Positions 6,698 to 63,088 of a stretch of DNA of 64,000 nucleotides are shown here, piece by piece; the stretch's first letter is position 1; the number at the start of each line of letters is the position of its first letter. The translations under genes and the position numbers were made by a program. The stretch covers positions 11,670 to 75,669 of the forward strand of contig CALEBN010000066.1 in NCBI GenBank assembly GCA_937943045.1, written 5' to 3'. The notes under the pieces were generated by a model. That model saw nothing but the letters and a program-made list of their open reading frames with translations. It made no database searches and was not told the origin of the DNA. The DNA comes from an uncultured Collinsella sp. GTDB taxonomy: Bacteria; Actinomycetota; Coriobacteriia; Coriobacteriales; Coriobacteriaceae.

Positions 6698-7948
6698 TTA
6701 CTGGCGCTGTTTGGGCTCGGTGACGATGGCTCGAACGATGCGGGGACGATCGGTGAGGTCGCGGACGATGCGCACGTCCGAGAGACCCGCCTGGCGGCAG
6801 AGCTCGGCGGCGGCGTCGAGGGCACCCTCGTAGAGCTCGCAGGCAAACAGGCCGCCGGCGCGCAGCATGTAAGGCGCCGCATTGAGCAGGCGGCGGAAGA
6901 TATCGAGGCCGTCGGCACCGCCCTCGAGCGCCAAATCGGGCTCGAAGTCCTTAACCTCGTGCGGCAGCGAGCGCATGACGTCGGTCGGAATGTAAGGCGG
7001 GTTGGAAACGAGCACGTCAAAGGTGCCCCACTCTTCGCGGGGAATGGAACTCACCAGGTTGGTGAGGCTAAAGGCAACCTCATCTGCCGTGAGGCCGAGG
7101 GCATCGCGGTTTTTGGTGGCCAGATCGATGGCGCGCGGCTCGATATCGGTGGCGGTGCAGGTGACGTGGCCGCGGCGCTCCCAGGCAAGGGAGAGCGAGA
7201 TGCAGCCTGTGCCGCAACCGACCTCGAGAACGCGGGCGATACGGGGCTCGACCGGCGCGGGCGAGGCGGCATCCTGAGCTGAAGCCATCTCCTGGTCGGC
7301 GCCCTCGATGGCGATGCCGTATTCGTCGAGCTCGGGTTCGGCGGCTTCCGCGGCTTCGGCTTCTGCTGTCTGCGTGGCGGCTTCCTCGGCCTCGCGGTCG
7401 GCCAGTTCTTCGGCATAGGCACGACTGCCCAACACATCGCTACCCAACGCCGCCTCGTCGGCAGCCGTGAGGTTGGCGGCACGGCGCTCGGCCGTCGCTC
7501 GCTCGTCGGCCAATGCGACTTCGGCCTTGCGCGCTTGCTCGACTTCATCGTTCCAGGGCAGCTCAACGCGCTGACGGGCAGCAGCCTCGGGGCTCAGCAC
7601 CTCGGCATCCAGATAATTGAGGACTTCCTCGACGAGCATCTCGGTCTCGGGACGCGGAATGAGCACACCGGGGGCGCATGCGACGTCGATCATGCGGAAC
7701 TGCGTGCTGCCGGTGATGTACTGCAGCGGCTCGCCCTTGGCGCGGCGGACGACCGCCGCATGCATGGTCTCGAGCTGCGCCGCATCGAGCGTCTCGTCCA
7801 TACGCATATATAAGTCGATGCGCGCCAGACCCGTGGCTGCGCACAGCAGCCATTCGGCAGAAAGACGGGGATGCTCCTCACCGCGCTCGGCCAGGTACTC
7901 CTTGGTCCACTCGAGACAACGCTTGATGGTCCAGATCTCGTTTGCCAT
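6698..7948 (-). CDS. prmC: peptide chain release factor N5-glutamine methyltransferase with a ~120 aa acidic insertion
   Basis: N-terminal HemK domain, PRPETE, then VLEVGCGTGCISL and the NPPY motif (SNPPYIP). Start set at the ATG at 7948, preceded by GGGGAGGA. Confidence 0.85.
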   Translation of the reverse strand: MANEIWTIKRCLEWTKEYLAERGEEHPRLSAEWLLCAATGLARIDLYMRMDETLDAAQLETMHAAVVRRAKGEPLQYITGSTQFRMIDVACAPGVLIPRPETEMLVEEVLNYLDAEVLSPEAAARQRVELPWNDEVEQARKAEVALADERATAERRAANLTAADEAALGSDVLGSRAYAEELADREAEEAATQTAEAEAAEAAEPELDEYGIAIEGADQEMASAQDAASPAPVEPRIARVLEVGCGTGCISLSLAWERRGHVTCTATDIEPRAIDLATKNRDALGLTADEVAFSLTNLVSSIPREEWGTFDVLVSNPPYIPTDVMRSLPHEVKDFEPDLALEGGADGLDIFRRLLNAAPYMLRAGGLFACELYEGALDAAAELCRQAGLSDVRIVRDLTDRPRIVRAIVTEPKQRQ

Positions 7949-8339
7949 GGGGTCCTCCCCTCTTAAGCGCCGGGCGGCGCGCGAATGTCGGAGCAGATTG
8001 TACGCGAGGTCAGCGCTTGGCAAGGGACGATTGAAGGCGATTATCGAGAATCAGCCCAGAATTTTGCACCGGGCTCGCTCAAAGTGTTCATTCGCCGACG
8101 TCTAGATTTGCATTCGTCAAGCTTTTGGCAAGCTTGCCCTTAACCTGACCAATATCTAACCAAACGCTTGCCACATCGCTTGACGCGCGACGCGTCAAAA
8201 ATCACCCCGCGACTTCTTGGACGATTTTTCGAGCAATATTTTCAATAACAGATGCACGCCGTTGATTGCTTTAAGCAGATAAACAGCTTAAAGGCCATCA
8301 AAGCCGATTGAGTAACATCTCAAAGCAATGTGCCCAACC

Positions 8340-8562
8340 TAGTCATTTAAGAACGTCCCCAATGACTAAAGGGATCATTCAAGTGCCAACCAAGATAACG
8401 CCGATGTCTTGGCAATGCCAGCGAGCGGGTCGCATTTGAGGCAAGGTGACGTGAAACGAAAGGGCGCAGACCTTCTGGTCGCGCCCTTGAAGTTGAACGT
8501 CAGATTGTCCAAATGCGGCCCGCGCAGCGTCGGCTGGTCCGCCGTTCGGTAGAACGGCGGAA
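8340..8562 (-). ncRNA. structured repeat element, family 1, copy A (candidate ncRNA, identity unknown)
   Basis: Long imperfect hairpin (outer arms 8426-8441 / 8509-8522, apical GGGCGC-AGACC-TTCT-GGTC-GCGCCC at 8461-8487) plus flanking blocks shared with copies at 23323-23485 and 38300-38525. Confidence 0.45.
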
Positions 8563-8566
8563 CCCA

Positions 8567-9634
8567 CTACACGGCCTGTGCCAGCTTCTCGGCTCGCTCG
8601 GCGGCGGCGAGCGCCTCGATGACGGTGCCGAGCTGATCGCCCAGAAGGACGCCGTTGTAGGTGGAGTTGAAACCGATGCGGTGATCGGTCACGCGGTCCT
8701 GGGGCTGGTTATAGGTACGGATCTTCTCGGAACGGTTGCCGTGGCCAATCTGGCTCTGGCGCTCGGCGCCGAGCTCGGCCTGCTGCTTCTCGAGCTCCAT
8801 CTCGTACAGACGGGCGCGCAGCATCTGCATGCAGACCTCGCGGTTCTGAATCTGGGAACGCTGCTCTTGCGACTGCACCACGGTGTTGGTGGGCAGGTGG
8901 GTGATACGCACGGCGGAGTAGGTGGTGTTAACGCACTGACCGCCAGGGCCCGAAGCGCAGTAAGTGTCGATACGCAGGTCGGACTGGTTGATCTGGACGT
9001 CAATCTCCTCGGCCTCGGGAAGCACGGCGACGGTTGCCGTTGAGGTCTGGATGCGGCCCTGGGACTCGGTCTTGGGAACGCGCTGGACGCGGTGCACGCC
9101 GGACTCGAACTTCATGACGGAGTAGACGCGGTCGCCCTCGACCTTGAACTCAATGGACTTAAAGCCGCCGGCCTCGCTGGGGCTGGAATCGAGCACGGTA
9201 GTCTTCCAGCCGCGCGACTCGCAAAAGCGCTGATACATCTTGTACAGGTCGCCGGCGAAGATGGCCGCCTCGTCGCCACCGGCGGCGGAGCGAATCTCGA
9301 CGATGGTGTTCTTGTCGTCGTTGGGGTCACTCGGGATGAGCATGTACTTGATGTCTTCCTCGAGCTGGGGAAGCTTTTCCTCGTTCTCGGAGATGTCCAT
9401 CTGGAGCATCTCCTTCTCGTCCGCATCGCTGGTGTCGCGGAGCATCTCCTTGGCGGCCTCGATGTCATCGAGCGCGCCGATGTACTCGCGCGAGGCAGCG
9501 ATGAGGTCGGACTGGTGTGCGTACTCCTTGTTGAGACGCGTGAACTCCTTGATGTCGGAGGCGACGGCCGGGTCGGAAAGCTTCTTCTCGAGCTCCTCGT
9601 AGGCCTTGATGATCTTTTCGAGCTTGTCGCGCAT
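8567..9634 (-). CDS. prfA: peptide chain release factor 1
   Basis: 355 aa with GGQ motif (SGPGGQCVNTT) and an RF-1 type PxT region (RVPKTESQGRIQTST). Confidence 0.95.
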   Translation of the reverse strand: MRDKLEKIIKAYEELEKKLSDPAVASDIKEFTRLNKEYAHQSDLIAASREYIGALDDIEAAKEMLRDTSDADEKEMLQMDISENEEKLPQLEEDIKYMLIPSDPNDDKNTIVEIRSAAGGDEAAIFAGDLYKMYQRFCESRGWKTTVLDSSPSEAGGFKSIEFKVEGDRVYSVMKFESGVHRVQRVPKTESQGRIQTSTATVAVLPEAEEIDVQINQSDLRIDTYCASGPGGQCVNTTYSAVRITHLPTNTVVQSQEQRSQIQNREVCMQMLRARLYEMELEKQQAELGAERQSQIGHGNRSEKIRTYNQPQDRVTDHRIGFNSTYNGVLLGDQLGTVIEALAAAERAEKLAQAV

Positions 9635-10384: not shown

Positions 10385-13300
10385 CTACCGGTTCCGGCGC
10401 CGCAGGATAACGCCTGCGGCGATCAGCACCACCGCGCCGCCCGCGATGCCACCCAGGGCCATCGGCGACAAGCTGGTATCGCCCGTATACGGCAGACCCG
10501 GCTTCTCCTCCTTCGGCACCGGTGACTTGCTCGGCGGATTGGTGGGCGGCTCCGTCGGCGGGGTGGTCGGCGGCGTGTACGTGTTCTTGAACACCGGCGC
10601 CACGGCGCCGTCATAGGTTACCGTCGCCACCAGATGGCCCGCACCGTCGTCCGTCACCGTCACCGTTACCCGGTGCTCGGCCGCGTCGTACGTCACGTTC
10701 TTCTGACCGTCGTCCACCTCGGAGATGCTGTAGGCGTACGTTCCGGGCTTGTCGTACGAGATCGCCTCGAAGCCCACCGTGCCGTCCGCCGCGTTCTTTG
10801 CGGTCTGCAGCACCTTGCCGTCGGCATCCTTCAGCTGGAAGGAGAACCGCCCTTCCTTCAGGTCCTCGCCGCTCAGCACCTTGGAGGCCCCCAGCTTCAC
10901 CTCAGTCGCGGCCGGCGCGTAACTGTTGCTGAACGCCACCGCATCCGCAGCCTTGCCGCCCTTGCTGTAGGCAACCTGCGCCTCCAGCGCGTGCGTCTCC
11001 GCATTCTCCGTCACCGTCACCGTCGCGGTAAAGACCGTCGTGTCGTAGGTGACGCCGTTCGCCGTCGCCCCTGCCCGCTCGGACACGGTGTAGACGTACG
11101 TCCCCACCTTGTCCAGCTGCAGCGGCGCGAAGCCGAACGTGCCGTCGGCGCCGTTCTGCACCGTCTGCACCACGTTACCGTCGGCGTCCTTCAGGTCGAA
11201 GAAGAACTCACCCTCGGCCAGGTCGCGGCCGGTCAGAGCCTTCGTTCCGGTAATCGTCGCCGTCGTTGCCGTCGGCGTGTAGGTGTTGGTGAAGGTCAGA
11301 TCCGCAGCCGTCTTGTTCGCCGTCGCGGTCAGCTGGCCGCTGCCGTCATCGGTCACGTTCACCGTTACGTCCAGCACCGCATCGCTGTAAGTGATGGTGC
11401 CATCTTGGCCCGCAACCTCCTTCACCTGGTACGCATGCGAACCAGTTGCGGTGTACGAGATGGCCTTGAAGGTAAACGCTTTACCCACGTTCGTGGTCCG
11501 GTCGATCTCCTGCCCGGTGGCCACGTCAATCAGCGCGAATGTGAACTCGCCATCGGCGGGCGTCCGCGTGGTGGCCGGGTCGGCATTCTCAAGCACCTTG
11601 GTGCCAGAGATCTGGTAGGAGGTCTGACCCGGCTGGTAGCTGTTCGCAAACGTCATGGTATTGGGGGTGACGCCGTTCTCGGTGCCCTCGCTCGGTTTCA
11701 CCGTAGAGCTCTCTACCACCAGCTTGCCGTCGTTGTTGTCCTTCACCACGTAGGTCAGGGTGTACGTCTTGCCGGTGTAGGTCACGCCCGGCACGCCCGG
11801 CGCGCCGTCCGTCGGCTGCACCTCACGGACCGTGAAGGGAAAGGTGCCCGCATGGTCGAAGGTCAGCTCGTTAAAGTAAACCTTGCCCTTGGCGTCGTTC
11901 TTCTGGGTCTGGAGCACCGTACCGTCAGACCCCACCAGCTCGAAGGCGAAGTCTCCCGCCTTTAGCTGATAGCTGCCGTCGTGCACGTCAACGCTCTTGG
12001 TGAGGGCGATCGCGCCGGAGTTCGTCGCCTTCGCCTTGTAGGTGTTGGTGAAGGTGGGCTTCGTGGCGTCCGCGCCGTCGTAGGCGACGCTCGCCTGCAG
12101 CGTGCCGGCATTGTCCACAACCGTCACCACGGCATGATGCACCGCGTCGTCGTAGGTCACGTAGGCCAGATCACCCTTCCGCTCCACGATAGTGTACTCG
12201 TACGTGCCCGGCTTCGCGTAGGAGAAGGCGTCGAAGTTAACGCTTCCGTCCGCGCCGTTGGTCGCGGTCCGGACGGGCTTGGCCCCGGCAAGCTGCTCAG
12301 CAGTCATTTTGCCCTCGTACACATCGAAGGTGAACTCGCCGTCCTTGGGGACGATCGGCGTGTTGTCGTCCTTCTTCACATAGCTCTTCTGCGCACCGAG
12401 GGCCAGACCGGTCGCGGCCGGCTGGTAGGTGTTGGTGAAGGTATCCGAGCCGGATGCGCTCGTCACGATCGCCTTCGCATTCAGTGCTCCGTTCCCGCCG
12501 TCTGTGACCGTCACCGTATAGGTGAGGGCATGATTGTCATAGACCATGCCCGGCTCCGCGCCCGGCTGCTCCACGATGGTGTAGGTGAAGTCCTTGCTCG
12601 CGGCGCCGCCCAGGTCGGAGAGCTGGAACTCGCGCGTGAAGCAGACCTTGCCGTTTGCATCGTTCTTCGCGGTGGCGATCACGTTGCCGGCAGCGTCCTT
12701 CAGGTCGAAGGTGAACTCGCCGTCCGCAGGCTTCGTCGTGTGATCGAAGCCGTCCGCAACCTTGATGGTCTTGGTCGCCGTCAGCTCCACGGATCCCTTT
12801 GCGGTGTAGGTGTTGTTGAAGGTGGGAGCCGTAGCGGTACCGTCATAGGTGACGGTCACCTTTGTCTTGTTGTTGTCGTCCTGGTTCTGCTCTACCTTGA
12901 CGTGGACCTTGACTTCCTTGGCGTCGTAGGCCACGCCGTCGACGGACTGGCCGGCCTTCTCCTCCTTGAGCGTGTAGTCGTACTCGCCCAGGTTCAGGCC
13001 CTTGACGGTCAGCTTGACCTTGCCATTCTTATCGTTGGTGCCGCGAGCGTCCTCATTGCCGTCCTGGTCGTACAAGCCGAAGGTGAACGCATCGGCCGTC
13101 AGGTCCTTGCCCGCGAGAACTTTCGTGGCCTCAACGGTGACGTCCGCCGTCGGCTTCGTGTTGGTGAAGGTCGGCACGGCCTTCTCGCCGTCGTAGGTGA
13201 CGGTCGCCTTCAGCTCGCCCTTTTCGTCGGTGACCTTGACGTGGACCTTCACGCCCTTCGCGTCGTAGACGACGGTCGAGTCGGCGCCCTTCACCTCCTT

Positions 13301-16300
13301 GATGGTGTAGTCGTGGTCGCCCGGCGTAGCGTAGTCGATGGCTGCAAAGGCGACCTTGCCGTCCTTCTCGTTTTGGACAGTCTGGACCACGCTGCCGTCC
13401 TTGTCGAGCAGCTGGAACGTGAAGTCACTCCCCGCGAGCTCACCGCCCGTGAAGCGCTTCGTCGCCTTGAGCGTTACCGAGGTCTCCTTCGGGCGGTACG
13501 TGTTCGTGAAGGTCTTGTCTCCACTCGTTACCTGCGGTGTGGCCGTCAGCGTACCGGCGCCATCGTCTGTGACCGTCACCGTATAGGTGAGGGTATGGTT
13601 GTCATAGACCATGCCGGCCTCCGCGCCCAGCTTCTCCGCGATGGTGTAGGCGAAGTCCTTGCTCGCGGCGCCGCCCAGGTCGGCGAGCTCGAAGTCGCGC
13701 GTGAACTTCACCGTGCCATCGGCCTCGTTCTTCGCGGTGTCGAGCACCTTGCCGTCGGCGTCCTTCAGCTCGAACGTGTATTCGCCGCCCTTCAGCTTGG
13801 TGTCGTGCGTGAAGCCCGGCGCGACCGCAACGACCTTGGTCGCCGTCAGCTCCACGGATCCCTTTGCGGTGTAGGTGTTCGTGAAGGTGGGGGCATCGGC
13901 CTTGTCACCATCGTAGGCAACGGCGGCGTCCAGCTTGCCAGCTTTGTCCATGACCTTCACCGCGGCATGGTGCACCGCGTCGTCGAAGGTCACGTGGGAC
14001 AGGTCGCCCTTCTTCTCCACGATGGTGTACTTGTACTCGCCGGCCTTGGTGTAGTTGATGGCCGGGAAGGTGACGGTGCCGTCCTCGCCGTTCTTGGCGC
14101 TCCGGATGGGTTGCTTGCCCTTCAGCTGCTCGGCCGTCAGATCGCCCTCGTACAAGTCGAAGGCGAACTCGCCGCCCTTGAGCGCAGCCGGCGTGCTGTC
14201 GGACTTCACATAGGCCTTCTTCGCCGCGAGCGTCACCGAGGTCTCGGCGGGCTGATACGTGTTCTTGAAGGTCGGGATATCGTTCTTGCCGTCGTAAGTG
14301 ACGGTCGCCTTCGCCTTGTCGCCCTCCGCCTTCACCGAGACGTGAACCCTCACCTCCGTGGAATCGTAGGTGATGGTCGAATCGCTGCCAGCGACCTCCT
14401 TGAGCGTGTAGTCGTACTCGCCCAGGTTCAGGCCCTTGACGGTCAGCTTGACCTTGCCATTCTTATCGTTGGTGCCGCGAGCGTCCTCATTGCCGTCCTG
14501 GTCGTACAAGCCGAAGGTGAACGCATCGGCCGTCAGGTCCTTGCCCGCGAGAACTTTCGTGGCCTCAACGGTGACGTCCGCCGTCGGCTTCGTGTTGGTG
14601 AAGGTCGGCACGGCCTTCTCGCCGTCGTAGGTGACGGTCGCCTTCAGCTCGCCCTTTTCGTCGGTGACCTTGACGTGGACCTTCACGCCCTTCGCGTCGT
14701 AGACGACGGTCGAGTCGGCGCCCTTCACCTCCTTGATGGTGTAGTCGTGGTCGCCCGGCGTAGCGTAGTCGATGGCTGCAAAGGCGACCTTGCCGTCCTT
14801 CTCGTTTTGGACAGTCTGGACCACGCTGCCGTCCTTGTCGAGCAGCTGGAACGTGAAGTCACTCCCCGCGAGCTCACCGCCCGTGAAGCGCTTCGTCGCC
14901 TTGAGCGTTACCGAGGTCTCCTTCGGGCGGTACGTGTTCGTGATCACCGCAATCTGATCGTCGATCACCTGAGATGTGGCGGTGCCATCATCCTTATAGA
15001 TCTGCTCCATTTTGACGACTGGCTCGGTCAGATTTCCCTTGCCGTCATCCTTCACCGTTACGGTCACTTTGTATTCGGCGCTGGAGTAGCTGACACCGCC
15101 CAGCCAACTGGGATCGCTCTTGGCGGGCGTAGTCTCGGCAATGTAGTAGGTGTACTTGCCAGGCTTCTCATACTTAATCTCTCCGAAGCTAAATTCTTCG
15201 GCGCTCGTAACGGTCTTCTCGACCTGCTTCATGCCGGCCACGGGCGCTGCCGTGGCACCATCAGGCATCGGCGTTCCATCGGCGGCGCGCAGGCAAAGCT
15301 CGAAGCTGTCGGCGCTAGTCCACTCACGGCCGGTGAACTTCTTCTTCGCCTTGATGCCTGTGAGCGTCACCGAAGACTTCACGCTGTAGCTGTTGGTGAA
15401 CACCAGCTTGTTGTCTTTGGCCACCGTGCCGTCGGAATTCTGCGGGGCAATCCTGCCCGAGATGCTATTGCCTTCTTCAGTCAGATTCTTGTCACCCTGC
15501 TTGCGGCCGGTCAGCTTATAGCCCGCGGGCATCTTGTCTGCGCCGGTCAGCTCCTGCACCGCGTACTGGTCACCCTCGGCGAGACCGTACACGCGGATCG
15601 TCTGGTCGGCCGTGATGGTCTGCTCGCGGCCGTTCTCGAGGTCGAACATTTTGCCGACCTGCTTCTCGCTTGCGGTCCCCGCGTTCTCAAACACCGCGGC
15701 CTTGTACGTCTTCCCCGCCGTCGTGGGCACGGTGAACTTGAAGGTGAACCCCGCGTCCGGTTTTCCCGTCAGGCCCGCTGGCACCATGACCTTCTTCATC
15801 ACCTCGAGGCTCGCCTCGCGTTCGTTCGCCACGCGCACGCAGGTGGCGCCCGTAAACAGGGCGTTCAGATTCATGTCGCCCAGGTCGGCGCGGGTGCCCT
15901 TCGCATTAGTGTCACCAGACACGTCCTGCGTGATGCCCATACGTATCCAGCCCGTCTCGGTCTCCAGGCGGTAAGGTTCGTCCTTCTTGGTGGGCCCATA
16001 CTGGTAGACACGTCCATTGGCGCCGTACTTAAGATGTACCTCATTCTCGCCGCCCTTGGCGTCATTGTTCCAGGAAAGGTTGCCGTTGCCGTCGAGCGTC
16101 CCGTCGGACGTCTGGCGCTGGCCCTTGATCCACGTGAGCGTGTTGTCAATGTCGCCCTCTGCGCCAAACTGGCCCAGGCTCTTCATGAGCGAGCCCACGC
16201 CCACGAACGTCGAAACGCCGTCATCAACTGTACCAGCATCGGCGTGGACGCCGTAATCGTCCACAATCACCTTGATGAGCCTGTCATTAAGCAGGAAGCC

Positions 16301-18553
16301 ATTGGGCGCCGAGACCTCCTTCAGGAAGTAGGTACCCTTCACGAGCGGCTCGCTACTGTCGCTCGTAGACGGGAATACGCCCGCCCCTTCGAGCTTGACC
16401 GGGTTGGCGACCGACCTCGTCGTCAGGGTGTCGTAGGGGGCCTGGTCGCCATCGAGCACGGCCTTGCCGTTCGCATCCGTAGTCACCTGGGTGGACTTGT
16501 AAAGGCCGAACTTCGCCCCGTCAACGGGCTTACCCTCGGTATCGGTCTTCTGCACGAACAGGCGATTCTGGATGTTCGTGACGAGCAGGCGCGTGGCGAA
16601 CTGCCGCTTGAAGTTCGTGCCGTCTGCGATGTCGTCGCTGTACACGTGGACTGTGTTCTTAGGCGTCGCGTCGCCGATCGAGCTCGCCGTTGTGTGGTAG
16701 ATGGCCACCGTGTACTCGGCATCCTTGCGGGCATCACCGCTCAGCAGGTAGTAGTACTTGGAGATGTCACCGGGCAGATTTTGAATCTCTACCTGGTACT
16801 GGCCGCTTGTGTTGAGCGTGAAGGCGTGCAGGTCCTTCTTCGCCGCCTCGATAGCACCGGTCATGCCCGGCTCCTTGGCGAGGGTGTATCCCGCTCCCGT
16901 CGATGGGTCGCCCGACACGGCGTACCAATTGCTCGGATCTTTGATACCTGTGCCTGCGCTTTTGTCGCGCTTGAGCACCACAGCGAACAGTATGCCGGAG
17001 TCCAGATTGACGGTCTTGTCGGACTTCGTCAGGTCATTATTTGCCTTGTACACGGTCGACGGCGCGGTGATGGTCTCCTTCGCGGCGGCGAACGCACCGG
17101 TCTTCCACACGACGCTGCCCACGTCCATACCGCCGCGGTTGATGATGACGCCGCCCGCGCCGTTCTCAGCGCTCGCGGGCACGTACTCGAGCTGCATGCT
17201 ACCACCCGTCGCCGCGAGACTCGAGCGGTATCCCTCGGGTACGCGCGTCTCCTTCAGGAGGTAGTACTTGTTGTTGTCGTGATCCTTGTTGTAGAGATCG
17301 TCGAAGTTGATGACGCCGTTGTCCACGTCGTTCGTGAGCGTTAGGTGGCCGGCCTCGTCCGTGGTACCGGAGCCGATGAGCTCGCCCACGGTCTTGAAGT
17401 CCTTGTCGGTCTTATAGAGCTTGAACTCGGCACCCTGTACGAACTTGCCGTCCTGGTCGAACTTGATGATGTCGGACTCGGGCACCGTCACGAGGTTGAA
17501 CTTGAGCTCCATGTTGGAGTCGGTGGCGCCGCGCTCCAGGTAGAAGAACTTGAGGGTGTGGTTGGTGCCGTCGGCGAAGGTGTTGCCGTTGAAGCCCGAA
17601 GTGTCCTTATTCGCCTTCTGGTACTTGTTCTTCAGTGTGCCGTCGTTATTACCGTTCACCTTAATGTCGCCCGTACAAAAGTTGATGCTCAGACTCGCGC
17701 GGTTGTGAATACCGCCGATATCACCCACGAGGACATCGTCGATGAACACCCAGACGTCATCATCGCCGGCGAACTCGAACACCATGTCGTCGCCCGCGTT
17801 CGTCTTGCCGCCAGCAGGCTGCACGAATCGCGTGGACATTGAGAGGCCGAAGTGGTGGTTGACGGGGCGGCCGTCGTTGTAGCGCGAATCACCGGTGTTG
17901 TCTGCCTTGATGCCGGTTTGGACGAGCCGGCCGTTTTCCTCTTTGAGCACCTTGTCTGCCGCGTCGAACGGGAAGAACTGACCCTGGTGGGACGAATCGC
18001 CCGCTTTGTCAATGCCCCAGGTGTCATAGATGTCGAAGGCATTCTTGTCAGCGTTGTAGGCTGCGTAGTTTTTGGAGCTGTCATAGACGTAGTAGCCGTT
18101 CTGAACCTTGAGGAGGCCCGTCACGCCAAAATGGGACGTCTTGCCGATCTGGGCAGAGGAATCGAACAGGTAGCAGAGGGACTCGCCGCCCCAGGTTTTG
18201 GAAAGCTGCGGATAGCCGTCTAAAAGCGTGTTGTTGACAATGCCGGGCTGCGGGTTCGTGTTGCCCGTCCAATGGTTGAGCGACTCACCACCCTGGCCGT
18301 CGTTAAACTGGAACCGGTGGTTTGCGTTGACGCCGCCGTTGCCGGAAACCGACAGATGGTTATCGGGATTCACCCAGTAATCAAACAGGTTGATTGTTGT
18401 CCCCGAAGGCGAAATCGTCGTAACCGTGTGGTCCGAAAACGCCGCTTCCGCACGGGTCGGCAGGAAGAAACTCGCCGTCAGCGCGACGGCGAGGGCCAAA
18501 ACAATCACATATGGCGAGACCGGGCGCAGCCCACGACGACGGCCATAAGACAT
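10385..18553 (-). CDS. giant LPXTG-anchored surface adhesin: fibro-slime/PA14-like N-terminal domain, Cna-B/SpaA-type domains, and >20 Spy0128/FctA-like isopeptide repeat domains
   Basis: 2722 aa from the ATG at 18553. Signal peptide (VIVLALAVALTASFFLPTRAEA), GDDDVWVFIDDVLVGDIGGIH block, and repeated TFTNTY...K...G.F.F.L.D..G......N...G.V.F..I.Y...G...Y.I.E units. C-terminal LPYTG followed by a TM helix and RRRNR. Confidence 0.9.
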   Translation of the reverse strand: MSYGRRRGLRPVSPYVIVLALAVALTASFFLPTRAEAAFSDHTVTTISPSGTTINLFDYWVNPDNHLSVSGNGGVNANHRFQFNDGQGGESLNHWTGNTNPQPGIVNNTLLDGYPQLSKTWGGESLCYLFDSSAQIGKTSHFGVTGLLKVQNGYYVYDSSKNYAAYNADKNAFDIYDTWGIDKAGDSSHQGQFFPFDAADKVLKEENGRLVQTGIKADNTGDSRYNDGRPVNHHFGLSMSTRFVQPAGGKTNAGDDMVFEFAGDDDVWVFIDDVLVGDIGGIHNRASLSINFCTGDIKVNGNNDGTLKNKYQKANKDTSGFNGNTFADGTNHTLKFFYLERGATDSNMELKFNLVTVPESDIIKFDQDGKFVQGAEFKLYKTDKDFKTVGELIGSGTTDEAGHLTLTNDVDNGVINFDDLYNKDHDNNKYYLLKETRVPEGYRSSLAATGGSMQLEYVPASAENGAGGVIINRGGMDVGSVVWKTGAFAAAKETITAPSTVYKANNDLTKSDKTVNLDSGILFAVVLKRDKSAGTGIKDPSNWYAVSGDPSTGAGYTLAKEPGMTGAIEAAKKDLHAFTLNTSGQYQVEIQNLPGDISKYYYLLSGDARKDAEYTVAIYHTTASSIGDATPKNTVHVYSDDIADGTNFKRQFATRLLVTNIQNRLFVQKTDTEGKPVDGAKFGLYKSTQVTTDANGKAVLDGDQAPYDTLTTRSVANPVKLEGAGVFPSTSDSSEPLVKGTYFLKEVSAPNGFLLNDRLIKVIVDDYGVHADAGTVDDGVSTFVGVGSLMKSLGQFGAEGDIDNTLTWIKGQRQTSDGTLDGNGNLSWNNDAKGGENEVHLKYGANGRVYQYGPTKKDEPYRLETETGWIRMGITQDVSGDTNAKGTRADLGDMNLNALFTGATCVRVANEREASLEVMKKVMVPAGLTGKPDAGFTFKFTVPTTAGKTYKAAVFENAGTASEKQVGKMFDLENGREQTITADQTIRVYGLAEGDQYAVQELTGADKMPAGYKLTGRKQGDKNLTEEGNSISGRIAPQNSDGTVAKDNKLVFTNSYSVKSSVTLTGIKAKKKFTGREWTSADSFELCLRAADGTPMPDGATAAPVAGMKQVEKTVTSAEEFSFGEIKYEKPGKYTYYIAETTPAKSDPSWLGGVSYSSAEYKVTVTVKDDGKGNLTEPVVKMEQIYKDDGTATSQVIDDQIAVITNTYRPKETSVTLKATKRFTGGELAGSDFTFQLLDKDGSVVQTVQNEKDGKVAFAAIDYATPGDHDYTIKEVKGADSTVVYDAKGVKVHVKVTDEKGELKATVTYDGEKAVPTFTNTKPTADVTVEATKVLAGKDLTADAFTFGLYDQDGNEDARGTNDKNGKVKLTVKGLNLGEYDYTLKEVAGSDSTITYDSTEVRVHVSVKAEGDKAKATVTYDGKNDIPTFKNTYQPAETSVTLAAKKAYVKSDSTPAALKGGEFAFDLYEGDLTAEQLKGKQPIRSAKNGEDGTVTFPAINYTKAGEYKYTIVEKKGDLSHVTFDDAVHHAAVKVMDKAGKLDAAVAYDGDKADAPTFTNTYTAKGSVELTATKVVAVAPGFTHDTKLKGGEYTFELKDADGKVLDTAKNEADGTVKFTRDFELADLGGAASKDFAYTIAEKLGAEAGMVYDNHTLTYTVTVTDDGAGTLTATPQVTSGDKTFTNTYRPKETSVTLKATKRFTGGELAGSDFTFQLLDKDGSVVQTVQNEKDGKVAFAAIDYATPGDHDYTIKEVKGADSTVVYDAKGVKVHVKVTDEKGELKATVTYDGEKAVPTFTNTKPTADVTVEATKVLAGKDLTADAFTFGLYDQDGNEDARGTNDKNGKVKLTVKGLNLGEYDYTLKEEKAGQSVDGVAYDAKEVKVHVKVEQNQDDNNKTKVTVTYDGTATAPTFNNTYTAKGSVELTATKTIKVADGFDHTTKPADGEFTFDLKDAAGNVIATAKNDANGKVCFTREFQLSDLGGAASKDFTYTIVEQPGAEPGMVYDNHALTYTVTVTDGGNGALNAKAIVTSASGSDTFTNTYQPAATGLALGAQKSYVKKDDNTPIVPKDGEFTFDVYEGKMTAEQLAGAKPVRTATNGADGSVNFDAFSYAKPGTYEYTIVERKGDLAYVTYDDAVHHAVVTVVDNAGTLQASVAYDGADATKPTFTNTYKAKATNSGAIALTKSVDVHDGSYQLKAGDFAFELVGSDGTVLQTQKNDAKGKVYFNELTFDHAGTFPFTVREVQPTDGAPGVPGVTYTGKTYTLTYVVKDNNDGKLVVESSTVKPSEGTENGVTPNTMTFANSYQPGQTSYQISGTKVLENADPATTRTPADGEFTFALIDVATGQEIDRTTNVGKAFTFKAISYTATGSHAYQVKEVAGQDGTITYSDAVLDVTVNVTDDGSGQLTATANKTAADLTFTNTYTPTATTATITGTKALTGRDLAEGEFFFDLKDADGNVVQTVQNGADGTFGFAPLQLDKVGTYVYTVSERAGATANGVTYDTTVFTATVTVTENAETHALEAQVAYSKGGKAADAVAFSNSYAPAATEVKLGASKVLSGEDLKEGRFSFQLKDADGKVLQTAKNAADGTVGFEAISYDKPGTYAYSISEVDDGQKNVTYDAAEHRVTVTVTDDGAGHLVATVTYDGAVAPVFKNTYTPPTTPPTEPPTNPPSKSPVPKEEKPGLPYTGDTSLSPMALGGIAGGAVVLIAAGVILRRRNR
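12961..13509. repeat. 549-bp perfect internal duplication, copy 1 (inside the adhesin gene)
   Basis: Identical base for base to 14395-14943 (offset 1434 bp). Divergence is immediate outside these bounds. Confidence 0.9.
14395..14943. repeat. 549-bp perfect internal duplication, copy 2 (inside the adhesin gene)
   Basis: Identical to 12961-13509. The ORF track shows identical antisense peptides at 13002-13196 and 14436-14630. Confidence 0.9.
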
Positions 18554-18848
18554 GACGGACCACCGCTCGCGCGGCCGGTGTTCACCAGGAAGTTCCCTGC
18601 TTAGACACCCCCCCGGTAGCATTATTCACGAGTCGAGACGTCGTCTCTCTGAGCTCCTGCATAATTTCCTCCCTAGTCACACGGCGACCTGCCCGGGTGC
18701 TCCCCGGGGGCCGAGGCAGTCTGGCACATGCCCGCAGTCGTTCAAGGAATACCAGCCCCAGCATATGTCTCTTAAGATATCTTAGTCTTATTCTATGACA
18801 GTTTTTGTCTCATTACCGATGAAATCGGCTCAGTCCCTTTGTCGCATG

Positions 18849-23223: not shown

Positions 23224-23322
23224 AATCTGCCTTCCCTGTTGAATCGTATGCTGACGACTTAACAGGATATACGCCAGCGACCAGCAGCGCAGCACAAGCT
23301 CGAAAAATTAATAGGCACGCGG

Positions 23323-23485
23323 TAGTCATTGGGGACGTCGATGTTTTGGCAATGCCGGCGAGCGACGTCCAGAGCGACAAGTGGCATGAAAAAGGCAAGG
23401 CATGACCAGAAGGTCTATGCCTTGCCTTTTGAATGACAACTTGTCGCTCTGGACGACGCGCAGCATCGACCGAGCGGCGGAACCT
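23323..23485 (-). ncRNA. structured repeat element, family 1, copy B
   Basis: Long hairpin: outer arms 23367-23382 / 23439-23454, inner AAGGCAAGGCAT / ATGCCTTGCCTT around GACC-AGAA-GGTC. Shares CGATGTYTTGGCAATGCCRGCGAGCG and GACGTCCCCAATGACTA blocks with copy A. Confidence 0.45.
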
Positions 23486-24379
23486 CTAGAGCAAGGTAAC
23501 GCTAAAACTGCGCTTGTCCGTCTTGCCCGAGGCCAGGGTGATGGTGTTGACCTTGTGCTCAAAGACATCGTCCTCGGTGTCCATGGTGGTATGACCGGTC
23601 CAGGGCTCGAGCGCCACAAACGGAGCGTCGTTGGCGGCAGACCACACGCCAATGTACTTAAAGCCCTCAAAGTCGATCTTGACGCCGTGGCCCGACTTGC
23701 GGCCGCGCAGTGTGAGCGTGGAGCCCGGAGTATCGGTGAACATGATGGCATCGTTATCGAAGCTGCGGTGCGTGATGGGCAGCACGTCCGAGTTATCGGG
23801 AGCCTTGTAGCTGCCCTCGAACGTCATAAGACCGTCGGGCGTGATAATGGGGGCCTCGTTGGTCCAAGCCTCGGTAAACGCCAGCTCGTAATCCTCGAAC
23901 GCCTCATCCTCGGCACCGGGGGCGGGCACGTTAAATGCGGGGTGGCCGCCCACCGAGAACGGCAGGTCCACGTCGCCGGTGTTGGTGACGGCAAAGGTCT
24001 GCGTGAGGGTGGCGTCGCCGGTCAGGGCATAGGTCATGTTGAGCTTAAAGTGGAACGGAAAGGCCTTGAGCGACTCGGGCGTATCGGTGATCTCGTACGT
24101 TACCGAGGAGCCGTCCTCCGAAACCTCGACCAGCTCGTGCTCGACGATGCGCGCGAGTCCGTGGCGCGGCATCTCGCAGGTGCCGGCCGCAGACGTTGCC
24201 GTGTTGTTGCGCAGCGAGCCCACAATAGGGAACAGGATGGGCGCGTGCTTGCCCCAAAAGGCGGGGTCGCCCTGCCACAGATACTCGTTGCCGTTGAGGG
24301 CAAGGCTCGTGAGCTGGGCGCCCATGGAATCGATGGCCGCGGTGAGGCCGCCGCGCTTGATGGTAGTGACAGTAGACAT
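23486..24379 (-). CDS. aldose 1-epimerase family protein
   Basis: 297 aa. LTSLALNGNEYLWQGDPAFWGKHAPILFPIVG, GGHPAFN and EPW motifs typical of the galactose mutarotase-like fold. Confidence 0.8.
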   Translation of the reverse strand: MSTVTTIKRGGLTAAIDSMGAQLTSLALNGNEYLWQGDPAFWGKHAPILFPIVGSLRNNTATSAAGTCEMPRHGLARIVEHELVEVSEDGSSVTYEITDTPESLKAFPFHFKLNMTYALTGDATLTQTFAVTNTGDVDLPFSVGGHPAFNVPAPGAEDEAFEDYELAFTEAWTNEAPIITPDGLMTFEGSYKAPDNSDVLPITHRSFDNDAIMFTDTPGSTLTLRGRKSGHGVKIDFEGFKYIGVWSAANDAPFVALEPWTGHTTMDTEDDVFEHKVNTITLASGKTDKRSFSVTLL

Positions 24380-24458
24380 GCTACTTCCTCCAATGGTAAA
24401 CAACGGTGTCGATGGTTATTGTCCCACTCTTGGCGGCGGGGTTGAGCGGCAGGCGCAG

Positions 24459-25495: not shown

Positions 25496-25528
25496 AATGT
25501 GACAAAGGGACTGCCCCTTTGTCACATT
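25496..25528. repeat. GACAAAGGG palindromic hairpin, copy A
   Basis: AATGTGACAAAGGG-ACTGC-CCCTTTGTCACATT, 14-bp perfect arms, in the divergent intergenic region upstream of the MFS gene. Confidence 0.85.
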
Positions 25529-25576
25529 CTGTTAGAGTTGCAGGGATTGAATCCCGCTTATTCATGCGACATTGGA

Positions 25577-26821
25577 GTGACAACCTTGACCGCCGCAACC
25601 ACGCCTAAAAGCAAGTCAACCGCCGCCGTGCTCTCCCCTGCGCGCACTAAGCTCTGCTTGGCGCTGCTCGTGCTGTTGGGATTCTCGCTCGGCTGCTCCG
25701 AGTTCGTGGTCATCGGTATCGAGAGCGACCTGGCGACGGAACTCGACGTATCACTTGCTACTGCGGGCCAACTCATCAGCGTGTTCGCGCTGGTCTACGC
25801 CATCGCCACGCCGGTGCTTGCGCTCAGCACGGGGCGATTCCGCCGCTACCAGCTGCTCGTGTGCTACAGCATCGTCTTTGTGCTCGGCAACTTGGTCATG
25901 GCTCTGGCGCCCAACTTCCAGGTGCTGTTTATCTCGCGTATCATCCTGGGCTCCGTCTCGGGCGCACTGCTCGCCGTGGGCGTGACATACATCCCCGAGC
26001 TGCTGTCCCCGCAGCAAACTTCGCTTGCCATCTCGGTGGTATATGGTGCGTTTTCCGTGGCAATGGTCTTTGTGACCTCGATTGGCAAATTTGTGGCCGA
26101 CACGCTCGACTGGCACGTGGCCATGTACGGCACGCTGGCCTTTGCCGTTTTGATCTGCGGAGCGCTCGTAGCGTTTATGCCCCGCGCCGGTCAGACCGAT
26201 GAGCCCGCCACCTTCCGCGAGCAGGCGGGGCTGCTACGCGAGCCGAGCATCATCACCGGCATGCTTATCTTCTTGTTTGGCGTGGGCTCGGTCTATGTGT
26301 TCTACGGCTATGTGACGCCTTATCTTGAGCAGGTGCTGGGCATGGGCACCGTACAGGCGAGCACCACGCTCATGGCCTATGGCGTGTTCTGCCTGATTTC
26401 GAACATCCTGGGCGGATGGATCGATGCGCGTTTTGGCATGAAGGCGCTGCTGGTTACGTTTGCGCTGCAGGCGGCGGCGTTGCTCGGGCTGTTTGCTGTG
26501 GGCGGCACCATGCCGCTCGCGCTGGTCTTTGTCTTTAGCCTGGCGATGCTCATGTACCTGTTCTCGGTATCGTGCATCACGCACTTTATGGACGTGGCTC
26601 GCAGCCGCCATCCCAAATCGATGGTGCTCGCAAGTTCGGTTGAGCCCATGGCGTTTAACGTCGGCATCTCGTTTGGCACCGCAGTGGGCGGCGCCGTGGT
26701 AAGCAGCATTGGCATTGCGTACGTGGGTGCAGTGGGCGCCGCGTTCTCGCTTGTGGCCTGGGCGCTCACGCTGGTGACGATTAAGCTCGCCCGCTGGGAG
26801 CGCAAGCGGGCAAGGGCGTAG
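25577..26821 (+). CDS. MFS transporter (12-TM, drug/sugar efflux-like)
   Basis: Polytopic, with MFS-like loop motifs. Start uncertain (GTG 25577 or TTG 25586), because the longer ORF would read through the hairpin repeat. Confidence 0.8.
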   Translation: MTTLTAATTPKSKSTAAVLSPARTKLCLALLVLLGFSLGCSEFVVIGIESDLATELDVSLATAGQLISVFALVYAIATPVLALSTGRFRRYQLLVCYSIVFVLGNLVMALAPNFQVLFISRIILGSVSGALLAVGVTYIPELLSPQQTSLAISVVYGAFSVAMVFVTSIGKFVADTLDWHVAMYGTLAFAVLICGALVAFMPRAGQTDEPATFREQAGLLREPSIITGMLIFLFGVGSVYVFYGYVTPYLEQVLGMGTVQASTTLMAYGVFCLISNILGGWIDARFGMKALLVTFALQAAALLGLFAVGGTMPLALVFVFSLAMLMYLFSVSCITHFMDVARSRHPKSMVLASSVEPMAFNVGISFGTAVGGAVVSSIGIAYVGAVGAAFSLVAWALTLVTIKLARWERKRARA

Positions 26822-26828
26822 GCGTAGA

Positions 26829-26921
26829 TGCGATACTCGAGCTCGATGATGGCGATCGAACGAAAATCGCATATGCAACGTGTACTGTTTATCTGCCATG
26901 GCAACATCTGCCGCTCGACGA
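26829..26921 (+). repeat. attL-like direct repeat
   Basis: TGCGATACTCGAGCT...GCCGCTCGACGA aligns without gaps to 36121-36213, with about 9 mismatches. Confidence 0.85.
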
Positions 26922-35882: not shown

Positions 35883-36120
35883 ACATTGGTAGTAAAAATT
35901 TGAGCCGTACTACGTTTTTACTACTTTTGCTTCTACTTTTGACTGATTTCTGGCCTTAATAAAGTGGATTCTCCACCCTATATTGGAAACTGATTTTTAG
36001 AGCCATTCAGCTCGTTGAATGCAGTAGAAGTGTTGGGGATAAAGGTCTTATCTTGTTATTATCGCAGGTAGAAATAACTATTTGACCCTGTCCCTTTGCC
36101 ACATCACATCGGGGCGCGGC

Positions 36121-36213
36121 TGCGATACTCGAGCTTGATGATGGCGATCGAAAGGAAACCGCATATGCAATGCGTACTGTTTATCTGCCATGGGAACATC
36201 TGCCGCTCGACGA
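36121..36213 (+). repeat. attR-like direct repeat (overlaps the promoter and 5' end of the LMW-PTP gene)
   Basis: Partner of 26829-26921. Confidence 0.85.
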
Positions 36214-37928: not shown

Positions 37929-38109
37929 GAGTGTCCCCCTTGGGTCGGGTGCGACGCGACGGCGCCACAGTGCGACTAAGTGTAGCGCAGGGGGCGTTGC
38001 AAGCGGGCGCAGGCGCCGAGGAGGGCACATTGTTGCGGAAAGGTTACGGAAATGGGAGGCAAAATCGCGGCGGTAGCGGCACGGTAGCTGCCATCTATTT
38101 ACTACCATT

Positions 38110-38265
38110 CCAAAACTATGCCGGATTACTACGATAAACCGCCAGTCTCCAACCACAACGAATTGCACTCCAGCAAAACCGCAGGTAGACAGCTTGTGAT
38201 TTTCCGAAAAACAATGCCGAGGTCTGAGATTTCGAATTCATCGTAGTAATCCGGCATAGTTTTGG
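38110..38265. repeat. family-2 element: 26-bp perfect inverted repeats closing a core with AAAACCGCAGGTAGAC
   Basis: CCAAAACTATGCCGGATTACTACGAT (38110-38135) is the exact reverse complement of 38240-38265. Core at 38175-38190. Confidence 0.85.
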
Positions 38266-38299
38266 GCAAAGCAACTTTGGAAGGGTGTCACCGCAGCCC

Positions 38300-38525
38300 A
38301 AAATGATCCCTTTTCCTCCGTCCCCAAGGGATCACATGCACCGAAGCGGACCGTGACGGAATCACAGATTTGAGGACGGACAGCGAAAGCGTTCCCAAGC
38401 GAACAAGGTAGCGTGAAAGAGGAGGGCATAGGCCTTGTGTCCATGCCCGACGATTGAACGCCAGATTGCCGCTTAGGAGCGTTTGCAGCGTCGAGCCGTT
38501 ACGCGGTTTGGCAAAACCGCATAAC
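38300..38525 (-). ncRNA. structured repeat element, family 1, copy C
   Basis: Shares GTGAAAG..GGGCAT-AGGCC-TTGT-GTCC-ATGCCC, TTGAACGCCAGATTGCC, TGCAGCGTCGAGCC, a terminal hairpin GCGGTTTGGCAAAACCGC and GATCCCTT..TTGGGGACG with copy A. Confidence 0.4.
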
Positions 38526-46298: not shown

Positions 46299-46329
46299 AT
46301 GCGACAAAGGAACAGCCCCTTTGTCGCAT
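46299..46329. repeat. GACAAAGGG palindromic hairpin, copy B
   Basis: ATGCGACAAAGG-AACAGCC-CCTTTGTCGCAT, 9 nt after the MFS stop. Confidence 0.85.
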
Positions 46330-46359
46330 TCCACCGGTCACCAGTATTAAGGAGTCGAA

Positions 46360-47581: not shown

Positions 47582-47717
47582 GCCTATCTACTACGTTTAA
47601 CCGATTACCCTCAACCATACCGAATTTCGCGAAATAAAAACCGCAGGTAGACGGCTTGCCGATTTTCGGAAAACCCAGGCATGGTCGACCTATACGGTTC
47701 AAACGTAGTAGATGGGC
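47582..47717. repeat. family-2 element: 22/23-bp inverted repeats closing a core with AAAACCGCAGGTAGAC
   Basis: GCCTATCTACTACGTTTAACCG (47582-47603) pairs with 47695-47717 (1 mismatch, 1 indel). Core at 47637-47652. Interior is homologous to 38136-38239. Confidence 0.85.
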
Positions 47718-49959: not shown

Positions 49960-50116
49960 TCCGGCATGAAAATCGGACAAACAAGCCCAGGCTCGTTTGT
50001 CCGATTAACAGGCACATCTCCGTACACACCACAACAAAAAGGTGCCGCCCATCAAAGAGGCGGCACCAACAAAGTCTCATTCAGCTCAGAACCTACTGAC
50101 AAGCTCGTGCCGGCAG

Positions 50117-50186
50117 CCCCGGCCTTCCCTTTCCCTAGCGCGACCCTCGCAAAGCGCGTGAGCGATAGGGAAAGGGAAGGCCGGGG
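50117..50186. terminator. large perfect stem-loop between convergent tex and transaldolase genes
   Basis: 21-bp perfect arms CCCCGGCCTTCCCTTTCCCTA / TAGGGAAAGGGAAGGCCGGGG with a 28-nt loop. A second hairpin lies at 50041-50067, with a T-run on the reverse strand. Confidence 0.5.
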
Positions 50187-50217
50187 CGAACAGCCCACGG
50201 CGCAGCCAGTGTTCGCC

Positions 50218-57035: not shown

Positions 57036-57079
57036 AAAAACAAAAACCACCACAAAGGGACAGGCACCTTTGTGGTGGT
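57036..57079 (-). terminator. intrinsic terminator/attenuator between the small membrane gene and the kinase gene
   Basis: Reverse strand: ACCACCACAAAGG-N8-CCTTTGTGGTGGT followed by TTTTTGTTTTTG. Confidence 0.7.
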
Positions 57080-59533: not shown

Positions 59534-59568
59534 GAATGTGACAAAGGGATTGTCCCTTTGTCACATTC
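59534..59568. repeat. GACAAAGGG palindromic hairpin, copy C
   Basis: GAATGTGACAAAGGGA-TTG-TCCCTTTGTCACATTC, 16-bp perfect arms, abutting the nitroreductase stop codon. Confidence 0.85.
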
Positions 59569-59569
59569 G

Positions 59570-62931: not shown

Positions 62932-62958
62932 CTGCTAGCTGCTGAGCCACAACTGAAA

Positions 62959-63088
62959 CGTCTGTCCAGGCGGAGGCATATAAGGTTCCCTGCTCGGACA
63001 GTCCTGCGCAAGACGAAGGCCACATTAAGTGGCCTTCTTTGCGTGCGGAACTCGCGATGAACCTTATATGCCTCCGCCTGGACAGACG
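62959..63088. repeat. 30-bp perfect inverted repeats flanking a 70-bp segment that contains a terminator hairpin
   Basis: CGTCTGTCCAGGCGGAGGCATATAAGGTTC (62959-62988) is the exact reverse complement of 63059-63088. Confidence 0.85.

Follow-up and report, generated by a model that had tools for sequence, protein, structure and literature searches.

The 64-kb stretch of DNA analysed here (hereafter the window; contig CALEBN010000066.1) comes from an uncultured species of Collinsella, a genus that is very common in the human gut and counts hundreds of genome-defined species. It carries three homologous copies, A, B and C, of a non-coding palindromic element, here called Family-1, all of them on the minus strand. 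Copy A lies between prfA, the gene for RF1, and prmC, the next gene downstream; copy B follows the gene for an aldose 1-epimerase; and copy C has a divergent MarR gene on one side and a kinase gene on the other, and adjoins an unrelated element flanked by terminal inverted repeats (TIRs). We think it probable that copies A, B and C are members of an interspersed family of modular, palindromic mosaic repeats, specific to Collinsella and comparable to the repetitive extragenic palindromes (REPs), bacterial interspersed mosaic elements (BIMEs) and REPINs of other bacteria, and that they do not constitute a stand-alone regulatory RNA gene.

A profile built with nhmmer from the three copies recovered copy C at 38534-38298 (E 3e-60), copy A at 8572-8332 (E 8e-60) and copy B at 23501-23309 (E 9e-43), with no convincing match beyond these within the window. 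A covariance model built from 98 relatives, introduced below, matched exactly the same three copies in the window with 148 (A), 138 (C) and 84 (B) bits; with its filters off, this search found no diverged extra copies in the window, the weak matches at 50110-50272, 261-390 and 62958-63088 being other sequences. All three fold stably, with minimum free energies of -106.7 (A), -89.2 (B) and -92.2 (C) kcal/mol, which correspond to z-scores of -6.6, -10.2 and -3.5, respectively, against their own dinucleotide shuffles.

Much of the anatomy given in the original prediction, which had been made by inspection of the window by itself, was recovered by these searches. It had described three copies in one orientation, and both search methods return the same three minus-strand regions; it had placed copy A between prfA and prmC, and the starts of copies A and B at the stop codons of their upstream genes, where we also find them. 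The 5' hairpin that it saw in copies A and C, with only GGTTCCGCCG kept at this end of copy B, is present as it had it, as is the conserved block, which takes the form YGAYGCTGC in all three copies. Likewise, the long hairpin, with stems that differ in sequence and stay paired, is seen in every copy. The assignment of single-stranded blocks fared differently. The stretch TTGAACGYCAGATTGYC is actually the arm CAATCTGACGTTCAA, paired with TTTCACGTCACCTTG inside the long hairpin, and TTGGGGACG and CCCCAATGACTA make up a separate REP-like hairpin module, half of which is kept by copy B in the opposite orientation.

In order to place the three copies in a wider sample, a degenerate pattern derived from them was matched against the genome collection, yielding at least 120 stretches (862 kb), essentially all from Collinsella or Coriobacteriaceae, in which nhmmer delimited at least 147 element regions. 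The alignment of 98 distinct cores from this sample (alignment A2) is the basis of the covariance model and of the figures on pairing and covariation below. Read on the sense strand, the members, at more than 130 Collinsella loci, share a single order of parts: a stop codon, 0-5 nt that are often G-rich, the head hairpin, the block, the long hairpin, CGCTCGCTG, a linker and tail hairpins. The head is a 28-nt hairpin that occurs in the variants GTTACGCGG..CCGCGTAAC, GTTACGGCG..CGCCGTAAC, GTTCCGCCG..CGGCGGAC and others. In the block, GA-GCTGC is invariant across the 98 copies. The long hairpin of ~105 nt has an outer stem found in at least seven sequence versions and a tip found in at least five, between which lie the nearly invariant arms CAATCTGACGTTCAA and TTTCACGTCACCTTG, paired with each other around two fixed 2x2 internal loops. 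This hairpin consists of two inverted copies of the motif CAA-NN-TGACGT-NN-AA, and the fixed internal loops arise from the mismatches between them. In copy A, the conserved arms and the fixed internal loops lead to a tip GGGCGCGACC-AGAA-GGTCTGCGCCC. The core as a whole measures ~145 nt (142 to 151 nt, with indels). The linker behind CGCTCGCTG has at least three variants in the family, and the tail consists of none to several ~30-nt GGGGAC-loop hairpins that may point either way and at times form short arrays; their forms include TAGTCATT-GGGGACGTTCTTA-AATGACTA, GGCACTT-GGGGACGTTCCTTTT-GTGCC and GATCCCTT-GGGGACGGAGGAA-AAGGGATC.

The element matches no Rfam family. A cmscan search of the whole window against Rfam 15 gave no match to any family at gathering thresholds; at E<=10 the region of copy A drew only chance miRNA and IRES matches, and three other element-bearing loci drew none at E<=1. 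The Collinsella-1 motif (Weinberg et al. 2010; RF01700 is the accession listed in PMC2864571), which the original prediction had named as one possibility, shares with the present element a provenance in gut Actinobacteria and is itself of unknown function. Its model was in the searched library; the element does not reach its gathering threshold and gives no match even at E<=10, and the motif was rejected as an identification. Nothing specific on a Collinsella repeat of this kind was found in the searchable literature. Two further candidates were set aside: a protein-coding or read-through extension, on the ground that the stop-to-head offset (0-5 nt), the core length and the frame vary among copies; and a phage-borne element, in that 2.9 million viral contigs held one match, at a site that is occupied in bacterial genomes too.

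Turning to the pairing itself, RNAalifold predicted 43 pairs in the alignment, 26 of them with changes on both sides. Pairing is possible in 96.2% of the cells, against 78.2% when the partners are shuffled (0 of 500 shuffles came as high) and 34-42% when they are shifted by 1-3 columns; covariation scores 0.456 as against 0.150 in the shuffles. The head helix (helix 1) is 98.8% paired, with four pairs changed on both sides, and in the long hairpin with its tip helix 22 of the 35 pairs are so changed. Since pairing and covariation hold throughout this sample, the compensatory changes are real and general, and what the original prediction had read from three copies is borne out on a far larger set.

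Its further step, from compensatory change to a structured RNA as opposed to a repeat, does not follow, as DNA palindromes of the REP and REPIN type would show the same signature. The tolerated mismatches comprise 78 G·U/U·G and 65 A·C/C·A; because the two are balanced, the sense strand of an RNA is not singled out. Wobbles on the sense strand occur in three stem variants and antisense wobbles in one. The opposite strand of the long hairpin scores too, both with nhmmer and with the covariance model, and the 33 bits that copy A attains on the plus strand imply that its long hairpin is palindromic. The structure is under constraint, and the alignment would fit a sense RNA, a single-stranded DNA hairpin or a cruciform equally well. 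Copy B bears on the same question: the 23 nt at its tip (window 23392-23421), GGCATAGACCTTCTGGTCATGCC, match the canonical tip GGCATGACCAGAAGGTCTATGCC exactly once reverse-complemented; orthologous and other copies carry the canonical form, making copy B a case of hairpin-tip inversion. Such a flip is typical of DNA palindromes.

Table. Parts of the three copies, the stop codons that they follow, and related hairpins and genes (window coordinates unless a locus is named; L numbers are our labels for other loci)
Feature	Position	Strand	Basis and remarks
prfA (RF1) TAG stop codon	8567-8569	-	Open reading frame (ORF) 8567-9634(-), PCRF and RF-1 domains; copy A head begins 3 nt downstream
Copy A head hairpin GTTCCGCCG-TTCTACCGAA-CGGCGGAC(C)	8536-8563	-	Fold; helix 1 of the family consensus
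Copy A block CGACGCTGC (consensus YGAYGCTGC)	8524-8532	-	Pattern search; final bases open the long hairpin
Copy A long hairpin, ~105 nt	8421-8528	-	Outer stem GCGGGCCGCATTTGGACAA / TTGCCTCAAATGCGACCCGC; helices 2 and 3
Copy A CGCTCGCTG end and linker (variant GGCATTGCCAAGACATCGGCGT...)	8369-8420	-	Common to copy B; one of at least three family linker variants
Copy A tail, REP-like hairpin TAGTCATT-GGGGACGTTCTTA-AATGACTA	8340-8368	-	Unit known also away from cores, in both orientations
Aldose 1-epimerase TAG stop codon	23486-23488	-	ORF 23486-24403(-) matches Aldose_epim; copy B begins 1 nt downstream
Copy B, whole	23309-23485	-	nhmmer; covariance model 84 bits on minus, 61 bits on plus strand; fold z; alignment
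Copy B truncated head, GGTTCCGCCG only	23475-23484	-	
Copy B block CGATGCTGC	23460-23468	-	Pattern search
Copy B long hairpin, near-perfect	~23362-23464	-	23-nt tip inverted
Copy B linker GGCATTGCCAAAACATCGACGT	23335-23356	-	
Copy B half tail unit, reverse orientation	23323-23337		
Copy C core	38381-38525	-	Covariance model 138 bits; fold; orthologous copies in L011 and L087
Copy C head hairpin GTTATGCGG-TTTTGCCAAA-CCGCGTAAC	38498-38525	-	
Copy C block CGACGCTGC	38485-38493	-	Pattern search
Copy C long hairpin	~38383-38489	-	
Copy C linker (TCCGTCCTCAAATCTGTG... variant) and tail	38298-38380	-	Tail hairpin TGATCCCTT-GGGGACGGAGGAA-AAGGGATCA at 38304-38334
REP-like hairpins outside the copies, AAAGGGAC-type loop	20293-20327, 25496-25530, 46299-46331, 57046-57079, 59535-59569		For example AATGTGACA-AAGGGACTGCCCCTT-TGTCACATT
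RAYT-like gene	L069 4503-5261; L132-L134 4001-4759; also L135-L137	- in L069	Single-copy, syntenic

The distribution of the family combines fixed positions with fluid content. Clustering of the upstream flanks resolves 33-38 distinct genomic sites among the matches listed, and a Chao1-type extrapolation from 33 clusters (13 singletons, 7 doubletons) gives ~45 sites that fit the strict pattern; with three copies in the window, the number of cores is estimated at tens per genome. Orthologous sites are kept across many genome-defined Collinsella species, in contrast to module content, which is not. The site behind prfA is a case in point. The element is present there in the window, in five further genomes and in each of 10 assemblies whose RF1 matches that of the window exactly, and these copies differ in heads, outer stems, tips, linkers and tails even where RF1 is identical, in a spacer of ~590 to 750 nt behind a prfA gene that ends with TAG or TAA. 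Throughout the family, the variants of head, outer stem, tip, linker and tail occur in many combinations, such that one outer-stem variant is found with several tips and vice versa, which argues for exchange in short patches anchored in the invariant blocks; combinations that would not pair are absent. In addition, partial heads stand in tandem with full copies, and tail units are also encountered far from any core.

Two loci bear on how such sites may change. In L124 (4069-4700), whose RF1 is identical to that of the window, the gene behind prfA and its element is one for ThrE and not prmC, and the prfA-side core runs into the tail and flank of another site (that of L062, L120 and L048); this junction may stem from a rearrangement by way of the repeat or be an assembly chimera. 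The sole empty site in the sample permits a comparison of a filled locus (L032) with its unfilled counterparts (L012 and L111): directly after the stop codon, ~290 nt replace 29 nt, and nothing is duplicated.

The elements also stand in a close relation to stop codons. For 91 of the 124 heads, the stop of a same-strand ORF (of at least 60 codons) is no more than a few nucleotides away, this being TAG in 70 cases, TAA in 20 and TGA in one, and the offsets from stop to head peak at 0 and +1. Counted by site, 26 of 38 are stop-adjacent, with TAG only at 15, both TAG and TAA at 5, TAA only at 5 and TGA at a single one. As TGA ends 20% of the long ORFs in the same DNA and 25% of those within the window, its deficit is suggestive (P ~0.006-0.02 by a binomial estimate with ~26 independent sites). 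The element seems to have been placed behind a pre-existing stop and not to supply one, because the gene at the empty site already ends there with TAG. The remaining sites lie after canonical terminators or partial copies, or in promoter regions as does copy C, and some family members are located just downstream of a separate canonical terminator. None of copies A, B and C holds an intrinsic terminator, in the sense of a G+C-rich hairpin with a T run, within it or at its end, and the GC skew of the window is too flat to tie the orientation of the elements to the direction of replication.

These regularities give rise to the foremost alternative to a mosaic repeat, namely a cis-acting structured RNA module of the 3' untranslated region (3' UTR), which would be transcribed along with the upstream gene and the head hairpin of which would act together with the abutting RF1-readable TAG or TAA to tune termination, ribosome rescue or 3'-end stability, or to yield a small RNA, with repeat-like spread as a secondary matter. 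The strong covariation accompanied by invariant unpaired or internal-loop bases speaks for such a module, as do the concentration of sites within ~5 nt of a co-oriented stop that is almost never TGA and the retention of the element behind prfA in every genome examined despite the turnover of its sequence. However, about a third of the sites are not behind a stop, copy C being in a divergent promoter region; G·U pairs are not in surplus over A·C; the tip of copy B is inverted and tail units occur in either orientation; module content is not tied to gene function, and no Rfam relative was found; and the TGA deficit reaches only the significance given above for its ~26 independent sites. We consider this explanation possible, if doubtful. 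Bolder still would be an RNA device of head, long hairpin and linker coupled to RF1-dependent termination at ~40 genes including prfA, selected 0-5 nt behind TAG or TAA and never behind TGA, which RF2 alone reads, and tuning termination or rescue with a regulon-like feedback on the supply of RF1; or else the first composite, stop-codon-targeting, RAYT-mobilised element in Actinobacteria. This pair of ideas is a long shot.

Returning to the mosaic-repeat reading, it draws on a combination of properties: ~40 sites, mixed modules, tandem partial copies, REP-like tail units in both orientations and one inverted tip. There is also a candidate for an enzyme that would mobilise them. By published accounts, the signature of the REP-associated tyrosine transposases (RAYTs) is a single-copy, syntenic gene flanked by inverted palindromes (PMC2817692, PMC3116915). 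Searches by tblastn with IS200, IS608 and E. coli RAYT sequences found, with the E. coli query, a RAYT-like ORF in L069 only, where it adjoins no element. Its product scores 33.7 bits against Pfam Y1_Tnp (PF01797; cut-off 23); close homologues are abundant, one cluster having 2701 members, and more distant ones are labelled RayT by JGI. In L069 and six further contigs the gene occupies the same locus, rho-argS-CarD-like-[Y1_Tnp]-HD-aldehyde dehydrogenase, and an inverted pair of AACCTGCCAAAAAGGGACAGGTTTATTTTGGCAGG (hairpin AACCTGCCAAAAAGGGACAGGTTTATTTTGGCAGGTTTTATCTG) encloses it; the two have a GGGAC loop and each abut the stop codon of the neighbouring gene.

This loop would connect the gene to the tail units. 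Hairpins with (A/G)GGGAC on the 5' side of the loop and variable stems form a superfamily, of which 160 were counted in 1.05 Mb of Collinsella DNA and to which the tail units belong, as do five hairpins of the window outside the three copies. The tail units, ~30 nt of the form TAGTCRTT-GGGGAC...-AAYGACTA, have a G before them, which makes GTAG, in 23 of 36 instances and a G after them, which makes CTAG, in 30 of 36; GTAG or TTAG also occurs at many head junctions, where it coincides with the stop codon. Since the RAYT-like gene is single-copy, syntenic and flanked by inverted palindromes, a REP-RAYT system is likely to exist in Collinsella, with the tail modules linked to it; judged from sequence, it would be an apparently undescribed system of the Coriobacteriia. 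Membership in the REP-RAYT class extends at best to the tail units, and that the core is a substrate does not follow.

Briefly, we advance the following mechanism for the proposed mosaic repeats. Dispersal would probably take place on folded single-stranded DNA by means of the single-copy RAYT-like Y1 (HUH) transposase, at least for the GTAG-tagged tail units. Modules would pass between copies through ectopic recombination or gene conversion, with the invariant blocks as anchors, and variants with unpaired arms would be removed by selection or by the dispersal mechanism itself. On the mRNA, a stable hairpin behind the stop would most likely serve as a 3'-end barrier to exonucleases, as do the REPs of E. 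coli, and would insulate adjacent transcription units; termination at the stop codon that it abuts may be disturbed as well. Terminating ribosomes are reported by Liang, Rudd and Deutscher (2015) to stall where a REP lies within 15 nt of the stop codon. A role in RNA 3' ends or in translation termination is plausible by analogy with E. coli, where REPs shield mRNA from 3' exonucleases and decay needs RNase R plus PNPase (PMC12320835).

Several observations weigh against our interpretation and temper it. No transposition event of the core has been caught, and the sole filled/empty comparison amounts to a replacement and not to a clean insertion. The core hairpins are without the GGGAC motif; the hairpin that flanks the RAYT-like gene, AACCTGCCAAAAAGGGACAGGTTTATTTTGGCAGG, resembles the tail units in this loop motif only and has nothing in common with the core or head; and the protein itself scores 69.6 bits on the NCBIfam model for REP-associated tyrosine transposases, below the cut-off of 80. 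The copy number looks like tens per genome as against the hundreds typical of REPs. Further, the strict conservation of sites, the orientation with the upstream gene and the placement 0-5 nt after TAG or TAA would also fit a selected RNA function. Finally, some of the module shuffling, as well as the junction in L124, could be chimeras of short-read metagenome assemblies.

Comparison with known systems locates the family close to the REP group, with clear departures. REPs are defined as imperfect palindromes of 20-40 nt with a conserved GTAG (GT[AG]G) or CGTC tetranucleotide at one end (PMC3733652); REPs and BIMEs are extragenic, present in >100 copies per genome and arranged in mosaic clusters of alternating orientation (PMC2817692); and REPINs are REP doublets that form long hairpins (Bertels & Rainey, PMC3116915, PMC3337134). 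As in the REPs and BIMEs of Enterobacteria and Pseudomonas, the Collinsella element comprises extragenic palindromic units in mosaic clusters of alternating orientation, situated at gene 3' ends and between operon genes, with positions kept between strains and a variable composition. It resembles REP-RAYT systems in that its genus has a single-copy, syntenic gene for a Y1 (HUH) transposase with inverted hairpins of the tail units' superfamily on either side, and in the GTAG on those units. In contrast, its core of ~145 nt with a fixed three-part order is far from the 20-40 nt of a REP and falls outside the REP definition, and its host, a member of the Coriobacteriia, is an actinobacterium, unlike the usual REP hosts. 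With REPINs it has in common a hairpin (of 105 nt) made of two inverted motif copies, arms that evolve in concert and a population of variants per genome; it differs from them in the extra head hairpin and linker and in the strong polarity to the upstream stop codon, and its tie to a RAYT is only putative. To our knowledge, REP-RAYT systems have been described mainly in Proteobacteria.

Two other families offer partial parallels. The BOX element of Streptococcus pneumoniae is likewise modular, A-B(n)-C with a variable number of units and a stable predicted structure; it too is without terminal inverted repeats or a known transposase and is intergenic and confined to one genus. However, BOX has no sequence relationship to the present family and is not reported to abut stop codons. 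The mycobacterial interspersed repetitive unit (MIRU), like the Collinsella element, is actinobacterial, lies between operon genes, is oriented with transcription and touches flanking stop and start codons with its ends; it consists of tandem 40-100-bp direct repeats with small ORFs, whereas the Collinsella element is palindromic, non-coding and a single unit.

If instead the element were a classical MITE (miniature inverted-repeat transposable element), it would derive by deletion from an insertion sequence and be mobilised in trans by a DDE transposase, e.g., one of the IS630/mariner type targeting TA or CTAG, which would explain the TAG/TAA junction. Its size of 150-250 nt, its many copies and its intergenic placement are in keeping with this, as are the TA at the 5' junction, the CTAG at tail-unit ends and the presence of what looks like a true TIR-flanked MITE adjoining copy C. 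The ends of the element, however, tell otherwise. The original prediction had held up terminal repeats and target-site duplications as the mark of a MITE, and on looking for terminal inverted repeats and target-site duplications we found neither: in ~75 copies inspected the 5' end GTTNCGNNG... is unrelated to the 3' ends, which are tail units or linker, and the one empty site gives no target-site duplication. Moreover, the stop-to-head spacer can be anything from 0 to 5 nt long, ~1 Mb of loci yielded no full-length parent that carries a transposase gene, and the sites are conserved across species, not polymorphic. We regard a MITE as improbable.

Least probable of all is a recombination site that a site-specific recombinase reads as folded DNA, comparable to the attC sites of integrons or, in a PATE-like version, to IS200/IS605 ends: the position directly after a stop codon in the orientation of the gene, the conserved structure with variable sequence, the stem mismatches that recall the extrahelical bases of attC and a head beginning with GTT invite the comparison, but the flanks are housekeeping genes in normal synteny (prfA, prmC) and not cassette arrays, the head reads GTTACGC or GTTCCGC in place of the GTTRRRY of the attC core sites (RYYYAAC...GTTRRRY), and no integrase or tnpA/tnpB gene stands beside any copy among the loci listed. 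An IS200/IS605 derivative would have similar subterminal hairpins at its two ends and lie 3' of a fixed tetra- or pentanucleotide; here the hairpins of head and tail are unlike each other in stem, in loop and in length, and the junction is variable apart from TAR.

An unannotated repeat family at gene 3' ends has several consequences. It explains odd gaps such as that between prfA and prmC, can lead searches for structured RNAs astray and can cause short-read assemblies to break or become scrambled. Along with the RAYT-like gene and the GGGAC-loop superfamily, it would extend REP-RAYT biology to the Coriobacteriia. Its hypervariable and yet site-fixed modules are natural markers for strain typing and likely hot spots of rearrangement, and its link to TAG and TAA makes it a testable case for the effect of hairpins just behind stops on termination and mRNA decay.

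As regards the surroundings of the three copies, the prmC gene downstream of copy A (window 6698-8023(-)) is unusually long at 416-441 aa, with ~150 residues between PrmC_N (37-105) and the methyltransferase domain (263-344). On the other side of prfA, the window encodes an ORF of 2745 aa (10385-18622(-)) with many internal repeats of ~350-1400 nt; its orthologues in other assemblies range from 2361 to 3550 aa and carry the pilin/adhesin domains SpaA, FctA and DUF7601. In one complete Collinsella chromosome (L123 1369-2721(-)), a gene for a 450-aa HTH_38/HTH_23 protein, an IS30-like transposase in appearance, separates the adhesin gene from prfA; the window lacks it.

The window harbours repeats of other kinds as well. 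The element beside copy C, at 38100-38265, is ~165 nt long with the terminal inverted repeats CCAAAACTATGCCGGATTACTACGAT ... ATCGTAGTAATCCGGCATAGTTTTGG and has the appearance of a true MITE; it is also found at the orthologous site in L011, and an 86-nt part of it is repeated at 47589-47674 with 71% identity. A 101-nt direct repeat (family D13) at 26821-26921 and 36113-36213 has 90% identity between its copies, 9.3 kb apart. Lastly, a ~130-nt palindrome at 62958-63088, GAAACGTCTGTCCAGGCGGAGGCATATAAGGTTC ... GAACCTTATATGCCTCCGCCTGGACAGACGC around the inner hairpin GAAGGCCACATTAAGTGGCCTTC, is unrelated to Family-1, and a near-copy of its inner hairpin lies 120 nt downstream at 63143-63170.

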